Virus record (IMG/VR): IMGVR_UViG_3300011336_000523
Location: 1 to 55,886 of that record
DNA length: 55,886 bases
Reading direction: 5' to 3' (one strand)
Source of the DNA: a virus
Taxonomy: Duplodnaviria; Caudoviricetes
In this document: one piece after another, positions 31,869-53,120 of the stretch
Layout: every line of letters begins with the position of its first letter
How positions within the stretch are numbered: the first letter of the stretch is position 1
Notes under the pieces: model-generated
What the model was told of the DNA's origin: nothing
Databases searched by the model: none
What the model saw: the letters and a program-made list of their open reading frames with translations, nothing else
Program-made: the position numbers and the translations under genes

Positions 31869-34800
31869 TTAATCTAGTTCAGTAAATTTTGTTAATGTTT
31901 TTTTCACACCAGAATAGAACGGAATTAATGGTTCTATTTTAGCACCTATTTTTAATCTTTCTCTTTTAGTATCTTCATACAAATATGGATTTCCTATTGC
32001 TGTTTCACCTGCAGCTTTTATTAATTCTAATCCTTGTTTAATAGTAGATATAGAAGCCATAGGAGATGAACCTAATAAATCAATAGTTGATTCAGGATTT
32101 ACAAAGTAAGTTAAATCTCGATTAAACCTCCATGCAGAGTTAATAATAAAATCTGAACCTATTATATCATCCCATTCATCTTCATCATCATCATATCCTG
32201 CTAATGCTTTTGCTAAAAAGTAAGTTAGTGTTAATGATGCAATTATTTTAAATTCTCTTAATGTTTTTCTAACATTCTCTTCATCTAATCCTTCTATATT
32301 AAATTCTTTTAATTTATCAGGATTAAAATGTGCTGTCCATAGTATTTGCAATCCTTTTTTAATTGAACTAGAATTTAAACTACCATCAGACATAAATACA
32401 CTACGAAAATATCCTTTATTAACTCCTAACTCTGATGTGTATTCTTTTGAAAATCTTCTTGTAATACCTTCAAATAACCATGATGCTTTAAATTGACCTA
32501 ATAATCTACCATAAAAATTTTTATTTAAAGCTATTGGATCTCTTTTATTATCTCTAGCTAATAAAGTTCTAGATAAAGCATGTATTTCATTTATTACTTT
32601 ATTACGAAATTCAGAACCAATTTCAAAAGATTCAGTAAAATCACCATCTAAATATGCTGCTCCATTTTCATCAAATTTAATTGCATCAAGTAAAGAATAA
32701 AGATTACCAGAAGAATCTGGTATTTTAATAGCATTTAATCTTGCAAATAATAAAGAACCTTTTGATATTTTTTCAGATTGCTTAAAAAACCAAAAAGCTG
32801 TATCAGTCCATTTTCCTTTAGGAGTATCATAACCAAAATTACTTAACAATGGAAAATTATTATACCATTTTTCTAATTCGTCAGGATTTTTTAATAACTG
32901 ATATGTTTTTAAAAACCCTAATTTTAAATCACTATCTGTAAAAAATTTACCACCTGCAGCTTCTACATACATAGAAGAAAAAGATTGAAATAATTCTGCT
33001 ACTCCTGAAAAAAAATTAAACCCTAATGATTTAATTGCTGTGTAGTTTATTAAATTATTAGTTAATTTTTTACCAGTAACTACTCTACCAGAATCATTTC
33101 TTTGTTTTTCTATTGCTTTAAATTCTTCTTCTGTAATTAAGTTTTTTTCTAAATTTTCTTTTGCTTGTTGATAATTTTTTTCTAATTCAGGGTCATATAA
33201 CATTTTTGAAAAAACACCATCTTTATCCTGTCTTTTATCATACATGTGTGCTTCAACAAAATACTTTAATTGTTCAAAAGAATTATTTTGTAAAGGAGTT
33301 GCTAATTGAGGTTTACCATCTTTAAACTGTATGTTTCCATTAACTACTCTATACTCAGGTTGAGCTTTTACAACATTCATTAATATTTTTATATCATCTT
33401 CTATTTTTTCTTTTTCTGCTTTATTAATAGAAGCTGTTATAAATTCTTGAAGTATTTTAGGTAAATCATAAGATTTATTTTTAGCAGATAGTTTTTTATT
33501 TAACATATTACCATCTGGTATAGACATCATACTTTCACCTGTTGTAGGGTCTTCAAAATATTCTCTTTTATCTTCAGGTATTTCAGCTAATAAGTAATAT
33601 GGAAGATTAGACATTTTTGTTAAAAACGCTACATTTTCTGGTAATTCAGGAATATAAGTTAATGATACACTATGTTTAGTAGAAGGGTCTTCTAACCTAG
33701 CTTTTTTAATTGTATTAGTATAAAAATTATAAAATATTTTTCTAGGATCATTATCATTCATAGCTTGTAGTTCTGTAAACTTACTGTCTAAGTAAATAGG
33801 ATTTGTTACATTAAATTTAACATAGCTTTTTGTATATGCTAAAAATCTTTTTGCCCATTCTATTTCATCACTACTTCTTTTAGATTTAGTAAGTATATTT
33901 AAAAAAGTTACAGGATTAGAACTCATTAACATATAATTTATCTTATCGTTAATAATATCTTCTAAATTTCTAGTACCTTCTACAATATTACTTTTTCTTA
34001 TATTTTTTTCACCTTCAGCTAAATATTGGTTATATGCTTCTTCATCAATTTGAATATTGTGATTATTTCTTAAAAAATTTAAATAAGTTTCTATTTGTCT
34101 ATTAGTTACTTTTTCATCATTAAAATTAGGTATAACTTTATACTTATCTGTTATATATTTATGATTAAATTCACTAATAGTATATCCTGTTAATTCTCCA
34201 TTTTCATCTGTTTGCAGCATATAATTAAAAAACTCTTTTGGATTTTTTATATCACCTAGTAATTTTAAAATATTTTTTAACGATGCAATAAATAAATTTT
34301 GTTTTACTTCTATTGTATTTACAATATTTACAATTTTTTGATGTGCGTATCTAATTAAAGGGTTATTAGATGTAGCAGCTGATAGTACTTTAGATGTCCA
34401 TTTATCTTCTTGTCTATATCCACCAATAGGTGCTTTAACTTCATTAGATACTTTTTTTTCAGATGCTTTAGTTATAGCAGTTTCTAAATCAGATAATTTT
34501 TGATTAAACAATTTTATTTGATTTAATAAATCTTCTTCATATCCTTCAGTAGGAAACAAATCTAAATAAGTATTTAAATATTGAGAAGCTAATACAATAT
34601 GACCATTTGATAAATAAGCAAATGCTTCATCTATATGTTCAAACGCTTGTTGCAATAAAAAAGGAATAATTTGATTTTCTTCGTACTTTAAATCTTTAAT
34701 TCTTTTTTCTAAAGCTTTTATTCTTTTTCTTAAAATAAATTTATACTCTTCATTTTTTTCTTTAAAATATTGTTTTTTAACAGCTTCTAAGTTAGATGTT

Positions 34801-53120: not shown

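Follow-up and report, generated by a model that had tools for sequence, protein, structure and literature searches.

In the cargo genes of crAss-like phages, cysteine has been removed from giant ejected proteins almost everywhere except at those termini that face each other in consecutive proteins, where it occurs in pairs: a Cys 0–4 residues from the C-terminus of one protein has a partner Cys at position 3–6 of the next. We consider it rather probable that the facing termini are joined head to tail by disulfides that take the place of peptide bonds, where the S–S bond itself is what we infer. The window, i.e., the whole analysed stretch of 55,886 nt (IMGVR_UViG_3300011336_000523), carries the block of cargo genes of a crAss-like phage, whose giant products are probably packaged in the phage head and delivered into the host by ejection.

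When the cargo genes of the window are re-translated and their Cys recounted, the 4999-aa, 202-aa and 1684-aa proteins (Table 1) contain together 4 Cys in 6885 residues, while about 105 are expected from the other 38 complete window ORFs with 100 aa or more, in which 1.53% of the residues are Cys (140 of 9144). The binomial probability of this depletion is 4e-40. All four Cys sit 1–2 residues from a terminus, and four randomly placed Cys would all lie at most 3 residues from one of the six termini with probability 5e-11; in the comparison ORFs, Cys occurs within the first 6 residues in 1/38 and within the last 5 residues in 1/38. From depletion and placement together it follows that chance is excluded, and the observation in the window is confirmed as real. 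An earlier note had placed the Cys at position 4998 of the 4999-aa protein, at 3 and 201 of the 202-aa protein and at 3 of the 1684-aa protein, with none in the 671-aa protein upstream. Each of these counts was reproduced, and the recount found no internal Cys in the three chain proteins. The ends of the chain are Cys-free, as had also been claimed: the 671-aa ORF has no Cys, and the 4999-aa and 1684-aa proteins carry their single Cys at the end that faces the partner. That every Cys faces a partner in gene order is correct once a homing endonuclease gene is skipped, but literal adjacency fails at the 202-aa/1684-aa junction, because this mobile gene intervenes.

Table 1. Features of the cargo block, in positions of the window.
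Feature	Position	Strand	Remark
1684-aa last chain protein	31869..36923	-	only Cys at 3 (MGC..)
ART-PolyVal domain, aa 219-386 of 1684-aa protein	35766-36269	-	PF18760, 46.3 bits (cut-off 31.2)
Mobile cassette	36771..37673	-	endonuclease gene and ~150 nt of each flanking gene, with both junction Cys codons
204-aa GIY-YIG/NUMOD3 homing endonuclease gene	36911..37525	-	between 202-aa and 1684-aa genes
202-aa linker	37516..38124	-	Cys 3 and Cys 201 (MNC.., ..KQCS*)
4999-aa giant, first chain protein	38121..53120	-	only Cys at 4998 (..TECK*)
Cys4998 codon TGT, penultimate residue of giant	38127..38129	-	from translation
SF1 Dda-like helicase domain, aa 4446-4983 of giant	38172..39785	-	PHROG, Pfam and PDB matches
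RNAP core, aa 2618-3718 of giant	41967..45269	-	DxDxD: D3015, D3017, D3019
671-aa ORF, 0 Cys	53124..55139	-	directly upstream of giant gene

The giant protein is a fusion of an N-terminal part like gp078 of phage phi14:2, a two-barrel virion RNA polymerase (RNAP) and a Dda-like helicase. Its residues 6–336 align to phi14:2 gp078 (E = 2e-9), and its residues 2618–3718 match residues 1011–2046 of the solved phi14:2 RNAP, which is of the gp66 type (PDB 6vr4_A, E = 6.6e-29). The catalytic residues D3015, D3017 and D3019 are invariant in 22 aligned giants, with the consensus ..GSDFDxDK... The helicase domain matches phrog_325 (E = 3e-70), Dda in PDB 3upu (E = 1e-14) and the Pfam family AAA_30 (67.8 bits, cut-off 27), with AAA_19, PIF1 and UvrD_C_2 also over cut-off, and its Walker A motif is conserved (G4525, T4526, G4527, K4528, T4529). 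The earlier note had called this protein an RNAP, which the 6vr4 match bears out for the RNAP part but which falls short as a full description, since the gp078-like part and the helicase are fused to it. Virion packaging and ejection of RNAP homologues are known from two phages only, phi14:2 and PhiCrAss001 (bioRxiv 10.1101/2020.03.07.982082; PMC10172136).

The fused helicase region has a Cys content of 0.048% in 120 giants, compared with 1.28% in 55 stand-alone relatives. The penultimate C4998 is at least 90% conserved in the alignment of 22 giants, while the rest of the tail is variable, and the stop codon of the giant gene overlaps the start of the 202-aa gene (ATGA). On the other side of the giant gene, the 671-aa protein has no PHROG or Pfam family, and relatives have Cys-free ORFs of 600–900 aa at the same position. 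It probably belongs to the cargo or ejection proteins without being part of the Cys-linked chain. A 155-aa ORF upstream of the 671-aa ORF is also without Cys.

The last chain protein carries the ART-PolyVal domain of polyvalent proteins, and tail and virion genes lie downstream of it. Cys is found in the first 6 residues of 102/120 of its homologues (76/89 clusters), and exactly one Cys in 78/120. The 202-aa linker between the two larger proteins has no Pfam family and consists of a hypervariable middle and a conserved C-terminal module of 48 aa; among 36 homologues, conservation is limited to M1, C3 and the module with C201. Exactly two Cys are present in 29/36 of these, and the first Cys lies at position 3–5 in 30/36, although the N-terminal parts cannot be aligned. 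The structure model of the linker has low confidence (mean pLDDT 65, pTM 0.29), with pLDDT below 50 for residues 1–8 and 200–202. Nine of the 36 homologues lack a Cys in the last 10 residues, and most of these nine have 57–71 or more residues beyond the Cys of the module; a Pfam scan of the variants with such extensions found no family. An extension of this kind would create a branch in the chain, which counts against a linear thread.

The gene between the 202-aa and 1684-aa genes was missed in the first reading. It encodes a protein with Cys at positions 50 and 66 that is outside the chain, and it is assigned as a homing endonuclease by PF01541 (31 bits, cut-off 22.6), NUMOD3 (47.3 bits, cut-off 20.4) and phrog_314 (E = 1e-29). 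It belongs to a mobile cassette: a segment of 905 nt is 90% identical to L001:5997-6898, with similarity that stops outside it, and the cassette recurs with 82–91% identity at loci L001, L003, L004 and L005 inside otherwise dissimilar genes. In the phage collection, blastn found no match to the junction region. One may ask whether the 202-aa and 1684-aa genes are exons around a group I intron that carries the endonuclease, or the two parts of a split intein, so that the Cys pair is an annotation artefact. The position of the endonuclease gene exactly between them would fit, and an intron-like interruption of an RNAP gene does exist at locus L100. We find this hardly credible, because intron RNA would have no space around the endonuclease ORF, whose overlaps with the two adjacent genes are 10 and 13 nt long, and the 4999-aa/202-aa junction shows the same Cys pair without an insert. 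In Rfam scans the window was without hits at gathering level, and no intron was matched at E ≤ 1 within 36500–38400. At neither terminus was there a Hint or intein domain, and the sole intein signal was a sub-threshold Intein_splicing match (21.3 bits versus 35.8) at aa 729–954 of the 1684-aa protein.

The pattern is retained by homologues down to about 30% identity, in line with the conservation that had been asked for. When the helicase part was used as a single query, no related loci were found, and tblastn returned mostly Dda genes of T4 type; an alignment as query succeeded. Cys occurs in the last 5 residues of 110/120 giant homologues (43/53 clusters), with offsets from the end of 0, 1, 2, 3 and 4 residues in 12, 30, 58, 7 and 3 cases, respectively. 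Internal Cys is suppressed, as in N4-like ejection proteins, to 0.02–0.03% across the homologues (73 in 230,544 residues, 0.032%, in the cluster representatives of the giants). One Cys per facing terminus and none elsewhere is found in the window, in phi14:2, in IMG/VR loci and in Fpv1.

The terminal Cys are also paired between neighbours. The cargo ORF after a Cys-ending giant has a Cys at position 3–5 in 11/11 IMG/VR loci, in two of which the link passes through a small two-Cys linker protein, while giants without a C-terminal Cys are followed by an ORF with an N-terminal Cys in 0/3 cases. In a table of junctions from 20 loci, the co-occurrence of a C-terminal Cys with an N-terminal one in the cargo gene that follows, which the earlier note had proposed to test, appears as 26 junctions with both, 3 with the C-terminal one only, 3 with the N-terminal one only and 27 with neither (Fisher P = 3e-10; raw table 19/11/10/45, P = 4e-5), where the P values overstate independence because the loci are related to one another. 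Paired genes are separated by gaps of −8 to +29 nt, and since one pair also spans opposite strands, the pairing is not a nucleotide artefact. For the same reason, and because some of the Cys codons are overlap-free, an artefact of codon overlap was rejected, and so was a programmed frameshift joining the ORFs, because not only the gaps but also the frames of the paired genes vary. A lipoprotein or signal-peptide role of the M-x-C start was rejected as well, since in the sequences of giants and 1684-aa homologues no hydrophobic leader precedes the Cys.

A related reading is that the Cys codons are without function, either scars of gene-splitting mobile cassettes or forced by overlapping starts. 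The cassette of the window does contain both junction Cys codons, and in the 202-aa gene the endonuclease ATG sits inside the ..A-ATG-T.. at the codon for the penultimate Cys, an overlap which alone would force TGT, TGC or TGG. Such an ATG within ..A-ATG-Y.. of the Cys codon is found at 3/4 junctions with a downstream endonuclease gene. This reading is nevertheless very improbable: the N-terminal Cys codons are free of overlap at 2/4 junctions examined, and Cys is kept in lineages with less than 30% identity despite diverged tails, at junctions without endonuclease or overlap, and between genes on opposite strands. When Cys is purged as strongly as it is elsewhere in these proteins, neutral terminal Cys should also be lost.

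The pattern is present in phi14:2 (Cellulophaga baltica), PhiCrAss001 (Bacteroides intestinalis), crAss002, a p-crAssphage relative and Fpv1. To exemplify, in phi14:2 gp078 ends in C, gp077 begins with MAC.. and ends in ..CK, and gp076 begins with MSC..; these three proteins are fused in some phages, according to the phi14:2 preprint (bioRxiv 10.1101/2020.03.07.982082). In Fpv1, a 4401-aa protein ends in ..CN and the next protein begins with MAC... In crAss002 and CrAssphage ZA, the upstream gene ends in ..CS or ..CM and an MSC begins at a Met within the annotated RNAP; the RNAP starts as annotated look too far upstream. PhiCrAss001 has gp47 (Cys at −2) on the strand opposite to gp50 and gp49 (Cys 5 in each). 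Its gp50 keeps an internal Cys at 1334, and the "terminal" Cys of gp50 lies 8 residues from the end. A group of gut giants of roughly 5800 aa has about 18 internal Cys, and such remainders speak against the linked chain.

The relation between Cys pairs and gene structure becomes clear when split and fused orthologues are compared. Split points differ between lineages, near residue 1600 in phi14:2 and locus L064 and near residues 2750–2920 in loci L066, L095 and L110, and at both of these points the giant of the window is continuous and Cys-free. In all ten giants without a C-terminal Cys, and in L092, the last protein of the chain is fused onto the C-terminus, and P0052 (5496 aa), in which the fusion is complete, is entirely without Cys. 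Split orthologues thus have the Cys pair and fused orthologues lack it, so that Cys pairs are gained or lost with fission or fusion and co-occur across neighbouring genes. The part of the earlier interpretation that gave the cysteines a linking role is in this way sustained, pairs being found only where polyproteins are split and absent when they are fused; its other parts, a disulfide that serves stoichiometric packaging or ordered ejection and is reduced in the host, are putative. When the RNAP gene is instead broken by an intron-like LAGLIDADG insertion, as in L100, there is no Cys pair at the break.

There are exceptions. In L003 and L005, a start of the type MGC.. or MSC.. follows a protein without a C-terminal Cys. 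In L074, a 463-aa protein with its single Cys as last residue precedes a Cys-free giant of 3726 aa. A lone Cys near the C-terminus, without a partner in the next gene, is also seen in gp30 of crAss002 and in the 795-aa protein of CrAssphage ZA. Unpartnered Cys such as those of L074 and gp30 would be expected if terminal Cys acted within one kind of protein, forming homodimers via like ends or rings through two Cys, and the doubly marked proteins (the 202-aa protein and phi14:2 gp077) could indeed close on themselves. Since this reading predicts neither the pairing between neighbours (26/3/3/27) nor the joint gain of Cys at fission and joint loss on fusion, we regard it as quite improbable.

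The explanation that we prefer, disulfides between neighbouring proteins, would work in the following way. Cargo proteins are taken to be purged of Cys except at the termini that face a partner, and each facing pair would form an intermolecular disulfide after oxidation of the particle. In the window, the 4999-aa, 202-aa and 1684-aa proteins would then be connected head to tail into a nearly linear thread of about 6900 residues, with free, Cys-free ends and with no internal Cys for loops or branches. Each disulfide would take over from the peptide bond by which these modules are connected in relatives with fused proteins, and would hold the pieces in fixed order during packaging and passage through the tail, after which the reducing cytoplasm of the host would separate them. 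We infer both the timing of the bond and its role in ejection; depletion, placement, conservation, pairing and the connection with fission are observed.

The cytoplasm in which the phage assembles is reducing, and the crassviruses of the gut live where there is no oxygen; oxidation would therefore have to come later, which speaks against disulfides. PhiCrAss001 virions, on the other hand, contain disulfides between subunits, and gp47, gp49 and gp50 are virion proteins that must partly unfold to pass the tail (PMC10172136). The same paper describes virion data sets obtained with and without reduction. Complex prediction with the helicase tail (aa 4440–4999), residues 1–150 of the 1684-aa protein and the 202-aa partner gave a score that was not specific against one control and that weighs neither for nor against the link.

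The data on pairing and fission establish partnership rather than chemistry, and the facing termini could be partners through something other than a simple disulfide, such as a docking contact with a different role for the thiol, or a metal ion shared by four Cys from two copies of the junction. Ferritin-like genes lie exactly at the Cys-pair junctions of L064, L066 and L095 (PF00210, E = 1e-19 to 2e-10), a hint of iron or redox handling. In p-crAssphage relatives, genes annotated as thioredoxin are located close to the RNAP block. Yet each terminus offers a single Cys, and in the homologue sequences there is no conserved His, Asp or second Cys near it and the neighbouring residues vary. The distance of the Cys from the end also differs by several residues, which is easier to reconcile with a flexible tail than with a fixed metal site. 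A link of this other kind is therefore unlikely.

With disulfides as the preferred link, a more general rule can be put forward tentatively, and we would not yet count on it: the ejected cargo of crAss-like phages may always be one covalent thread, in which every gene break is compensated by a redox-cleavable Cys pair. The thread would then be modular and tolerant to breakage, with inserts that are swapped between phages (homing endonucleases, ferritin-like proteins and hypervariable M-x-C ... C-x linkers) and with effectors that are delivered in fixed order.

Among the viruses of the human gut, crassviruses are the most abundant. Terminal pairing explains the exact exceptions to Cys suppression, offers a rule that predicts which separate genes make up one delivered unit, helps to correct start codons, shows in what way essential giant genes can withstand being invaded by mobile ones, and gives a hypothesis that can be tested cheaply in cultured phi14:2, PhiCrAss001 and crAss002. 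If the bond is confirmed, breakable bonds would link the products of separate genes one after another for transport, a case of which we know no phage example. A literature search, with subscription journals mostly outside it, found no earlier description of terminal Cys pairing. Two papers raise the question of how the megadalton load associated with the RNAP is packed, kept in proportion and passed along the tail (PMC10172136, PMC13434306).

The closest known systems are phi14:2 (gp078/gp077/gp076) and PhiCrAss001 (gp47/gp50/gp49), which have homologous cargo with the same pattern of terminal Cys. Compared with them, the giant of the window fuses the first two proteins with a Dda-like helicase, and the window adds a two-Cys linker and an endonuclease gene. 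In the available text of the papers on these phages the terminal Cys go unmentioned; the word "cysteine" occurs 0 times there in PMC10172136 and 0 times in bioRxiv 10.1101/2020.03.07.982082. N4-like phages (Schitoviridae) also eject a giant virion RNAP with their DNA, and its Cys content is 0.00075% compared with 0.865% in the whole proteome, a suppression which the authors attribute to passage through the periplasm (PMC11445570). The earlier statement that ejected proteins of N4 type lack Cys is confirmed by that text. The N4 vRNAP is a single polypeptide of about 3500 aa, with an RNAP of different type and no reported terminal Cys, whereas the cargo of crAss-like phages combines Cys suppression with precise terminal exceptions. 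N4 vRNAP chains are present in the PDB, and none was among the four PDB matches at E ≤ 0.01, so that no homology with N4 was found by this search.

Polyvalent proteins are giant multidomain proteins that are predicted to be injected, and for which proteolytic processing of single chains has been proposed (PMC5512222, with 0 occurrences of "cysteine" or "disulfide"). They have the ART-PolyVal domain in common with the 1684-aa protein, but the modules of the window are encoded by separate genes with paired terminal Cys and not as one chain. Free-standing homing endonucleases are known to split genes, and "fractured genes" carry split inteins. There, as in the window, a homing endonuclease gene lies between halves that are single in relatives; in contrast, the halves in the window have no Hint domain and one Cys each at their ends, and such pairs also occur without an endonuclease. 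The same working principle as in the proposed chain, without homology, is found in two-chain AB toxins, where an interchain disulfide holds the chains together during unfolded passage through a channel and cytosolic reduction releases them. The chains of AB toxins arise by cleavage of one precursor and their bond is internal, whereas in crAss-like phages the bonds would connect the extreme ends of products of separate genes, in series and inside a virus particle.

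On the minus strand of the window, the cargo block runs from a 155-aa ORF through the 671-aa, 4999-aa, 202-aa, 204-aa and 1684-aa ORFs, after which come lysis, tail and virion genes. An independent translation reproduces exactly the Cys positions that the earlier note had read in the 4999-aa, 202-aa and 1684-aa proteins (the chain), and finds the 671-aa protein Cys-free, as claimed. The gene order proposed there overlooked the 204-aa homing endonuclease gene between the 202-aa and 1684-aa genes. The window's other complete ORFs of 100 aa or more, 38 in number, serve as baseline: their 9144 residues include 140 Cys (1.53%). 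At that frequency the three chain proteins, with 6885 residues together, should have about 105 Cys; they have 4 (P = 4e-40), and the probability that 4 randomly placed Cys all fall within three residues of a terminus is 5e-11. Only one of the 38 has a Cys within its first six residues, and one within its last five. A 584-aa protein among the tail and virion genes is in sharp contrast to the cargo block in its Cys content, with a CGC motif close to its C-terminus.

Positions of the features discussed (window coordinates unless a related phage locus, L, is named; Cys from translation)
Feature	Position	Strand	Cys or remark
155-aa ORF, first of block		minus	0
671-aa ORF	53124-55139	minus	0
4999-aa ORF	38121-53120	minus	sole Cys at 4998
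Part encoding its residues 6-336	~52100-53100		
202-aa ORF	37516-38124	minus	3 and 201
204-aa ORF, GIY-YIG/NUMOD3 homing endonuclease	36911-37525	minus	overlaps both neighbours
Endonuclease cassette	36771-37673		905 nt
Cassette counterpart	L001:5997-6898		90% identical
1684-aa ORF	31869-36923	minus	sole Cys at 3
584-aa protein	27624-29378	minus	23 (3.9%)
Regions with homing endonuclease genes, replication module	3515-5678; 11045-13554	plus	
LAGLIDADG_2 interruption of RNAP gene	L100:10975-12086		
463-aa protein and giant	L074:6132-19195		
RNAP, crAss002 gp33	L063:16566 onward		doubtful annotated start
RNAP, CrAssphage ZA	L062:16647 onward		doubtful annotated start
Thioredoxin-annotated genes, CrAssphage ZA	L062:31094-31387; L062:32104-32373		
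Ferritin-like genes	L064:15082-15570; L066:11686-12183; L095:11638-12123		

The 4999-aa protein is a three-part fusion: residues 6-336 match the N-terminus of phi14:2 gp078 (E = 2e-9), residues 2618-3718 correspond to the phi14:2 virion RNAP of known structure, 6vr4 (E = 6.6e-29), with a DxDxD motif invariant across the 22 aligned giants (this protein and its homologues), and residues 4446-4983 form an SF1 helicase that is Dda-like. The first part, which is shared with gp078, has glycine-rich hydrophobic stretches that might be a membrane-inserting leading end of the thread. The 1684-aa protein has an ART-PolyVal domain and is therefore of the 'polyvalent protein' type, while a family search gave no match for the 202-aa and 671-aa proteins. 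The phi14:2-type RNAP and the associated protein matches identify the contig, as judged from sequence, as that of a crAss-like phage and these genes as its cargo. In the accessible text of PMC10172136, this class of cargo is found by mass spectrometry in PhiCrAss001 virions, and is argued to cross the tail partly unfolded.

The terminal Cys are conserved in the homologues, as is borne out by all three chain families. A search with residues 4400-4999 gave giants of 2755-6633 aa, and among the 120 matches listed 110 have a Cys at one of the last five positions (offset from the end 0 in 12, 1 in 30, 2 in 58, 3 in 7 and 4 in 3) and 48 also have one in the first six. When these 120 are collapsed to 53 clusters, the C-terminal Cys is present in 43 clusters, the N-terminal one in 25 and neither in 4, with 73 internal Cys in the 230,544 residues of the representatives (0.032%). 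Across the 22 aligned giants the tail past the helicase varies, but C4998 is at least 90% conserved. The fused helicase region holds 0.048% Cys in the 120 listed giants, against 1.28% in the Dda-like helicases that stand alone (55 distinct ones, retrieved in the same search). For the 1684-aa protein 120 homologues are listed: a Cys falls among the first six residues of 102 (76 of 89 clusters), 78 have a single Cys, and internal Cys number 48 in 222,484 residues (0.022%).

The 202-aa protein has 36 homologues besides itself, of 113-323 aa (P0122-P0157), with the first Cys at position 3-5 in 30, the last at offset 0-1 in 27 and exactly two Cys in 29. In the 17 of 37 sequences aligned, conservation is limited to M1, C3 and a C-terminal module of 48 residues that includes C201, and the middle is not alignable. 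The M-x-C start recurs in the family, and the module is nearly identical, with C-S at its end. In nine of the 36 homologues no Cys lies within 10 residues of the C-terminus; seven of these extend past the module Cys by 57-71 aa, which make up a domain, and an eighth, P0147, has there a longer C-x-x-C domain that is also seen in L003 and L005. No Pfam family matched the domains beyond the module Cys.

To see how the Cys of neighbouring genes are related, consider the 80 IMG/VR loci retrieved with the giant alignment. A giant of 1000 aa or more is present in 14, stand-alone helicases are encoded in about 60, and 6 gave no usable ORF (four none, two fragments), possibly through another genetic code. 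In all 11 cases where a giant ends in Cys (offset 0-2) and has a downstream ORF, a Cys stands at position 3-5 of the next cargo ORF; two of these links, those of L064 and L070, go via a small protein (127 and 297 aa) that has Cys at both ends and resembles the 202-aa protein of the window. Three giants have no C-terminal Cys (L074, L092, L135), and these never precede an ORF with an N-terminal Cys. Upstream, the protein before a giant that starts with Cys at 3-4 ends in Cys in 5 of 5 cases, and is Cys-free in 3 of 3 cases where the giant lacks an N-terminal Cys (L065, L067, L071). For ORFs of at least 110 aa in 20 loci, with neighbours at most 1500 nt apart, the junctions have both Cys in 19 cases, the C-terminal only in 11, the N-terminal only in 10 and neither in 45 (P = 4e-5). 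When ORFs below 300 aa without terminal Cys (endonucleases, ferritin-like genes and others) are omitted, these counts become 26, 3, 3 and 27 (P = 3e-10), which bears out the co-occurrence that the earlier note had proposed, though because the loci are related both P values overstate independence.

Cultured and reference phages follow the same pattern. In phi14:2, the sole Cys of gp078 (1797 aa) is its last residue, the RNAP gp077 (2180 aa) has Cys 3 and a penultimate Cys, gp076 (1421 aa) has Cys 3 only, and gp079 and gp081 have none. In PhiCrAss001, gp47 (2341 aa) has its sole Cys at -2, gp50 has Cys at 5, 1334 and -8, gp49 at 5 only, and gp46 none. The sole Cys of a 4401-aa protein of Fpv1 is penultimate, and the next protein begins MAC. 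In crAss002 and CrAssphage ZA the gene upstream of the RNAP terminates in CS or CM, and the annotated RNAPs have MSC at an internal Met (residue 33 and 22); since MSC (residues 33-35 and 22-24) is the family's usual start, the true starts probably lie downstream of those annotated. IAS virus, whose record includes unknown bases, fits less cleanly. Two thioredoxin-annotated genes lie 2-3 kb from the RNAP block of CrAssphage ZA.

Where the same polypeptide is broken in one phage and continuous in another, the Cys follow the break. According to the accessible part of the phi14:2 preprint (bioRxiv 10.1101/2020.03.07.982082), the three phi14:2 proteins are fused in some phages. By BLASTP, the break in phi14:2 and L064 maps near residue 1600 of the window protein, and that in L066, L095 and L110 near residues 2750-2920, within the RNAP region; at both sites the window protein is unbroken and Cys-free. 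All 10 giants without a C-terminal Cys among the 120 listed, and likewise the 4951-aa protein of L092, terminate in a region with homology to the chain's last protein (references: L066, 1349 aa; L067, 1314 aa; PhiCrAss001 gp49; phi14:2 gp076), and they end without Cys because nothing follows them. The fully fused P0052 (5496 aa) is entirely Cys-free. A LAGLIDADG_2 ORF, with a non-coding gap of about 190 nt on either side, breaks the RNAP gene of L100 directly past the catalytic GSDFD, and this looks like an intron; here there is no Cys pair, and the pair is found at the next true gene boundary. From this follows the rule that a break in the polypeptide has a Cys pair, and a peptide bond has none.

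A DNA-level artefact as source of the pairs was rejected: the gaps between paired genes vary from -8 to +29 nt, some paired genes have other genes inserted between them, in PhiCrAss001 one partner (gp47) lies on the strand opposite to gp50 and gp49, and two of four N-terminal Cys codons inspected at nucleotide level are free of any overlap. The endonuclease ATG of the window does overlap the Cys codon that is penultimate in the 202-aa gene (A-ATG-T), and both junction Cys codons fall inside the cassette, which comprises the endonuclease gene and about 150 nt of each neighbour. No group I intron was detectable around this gene, where there is no room for one, and no Hint domain was found at the termini of the chain proteins. 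Shorter stretches of the cassette are 82-91% identical in L003, L004 and L005, where the surrounding genes are unrelated, and L001 and L005 have more GIY-YIG genes at more Cys-pair junctions; these junctions seem to be sites where the giant-gene block tolerates insertions. Both cassette flanks encode a short LANAVY motif. In three loci ferritin-like genes (PF00210; weaker rubrerythrin matches) lie exactly between Cys-paired cargo genes, which could tie to redox or iron chemistry of the cargo. The replication module of the window has further homing endonuclease genes: one, a LAGLIDADG_3 ORF, comes after a family A DNA polymerase ORF that looks truncated, and another, a LAGLIDADG_2 ORF, adjoins a DnaB-like helicase gene.

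Exceptions include L074, in which a gap of 490 nt separates a 463-aa protein, with its sole Cys as last residue, from the Cys-free 3726-aa giant that comes next; crAss002 gp30, whose terminal Cys is unpaired; L003 and L005, with an MGC or MSC start and no upstream C-terminal Cys; and the variants of the 202-aa linker protein that run 57-71 or more residues beyond the Cys. The terminal Cys are real and general, and withstand the tests that put them at risk. The disulfide itself we infer: for one thiol on each of two facing, variable tails it is the simplest chemistry, and that the cargo forms a head-to-tail, redox-cleavable thread is, on balance, the probable reading. The bond would have to form once assembly, which takes place in a reducing cell, is over, the thread would serve ordered ejection, and reduction would release it. 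The near-total absence of other Cys would avoid loops and branches unable to pass a channel that, in the accessible text of PMC10172136, is narrower than 50 Å. The variable offset of the Cys fits flexible ends, as does the low confidence at residues 1-8 and 200-202 in a predicted model of the 202-aa protein that is weak overall.

Terminal cysteines of crassvirus cargo proteins are not mentioned in the open literature covered, including the accessible portions of PMC10172136, PMC11445570, PMC13434306, PMC5512222 and the phi14:2 preprint. That N4-type ejected proteins avoid Cys, as the earlier note had stated, is published (0.00075% against 0.865%, in the accessible part of PMC11445570). PhiCrAss001 virions, as described in the accessible text of PMC10172136, have inter-subunit disulfides in the tail and portal vertex, and crassvirus particles are therefore oxidised despite their anaerobic habitat.
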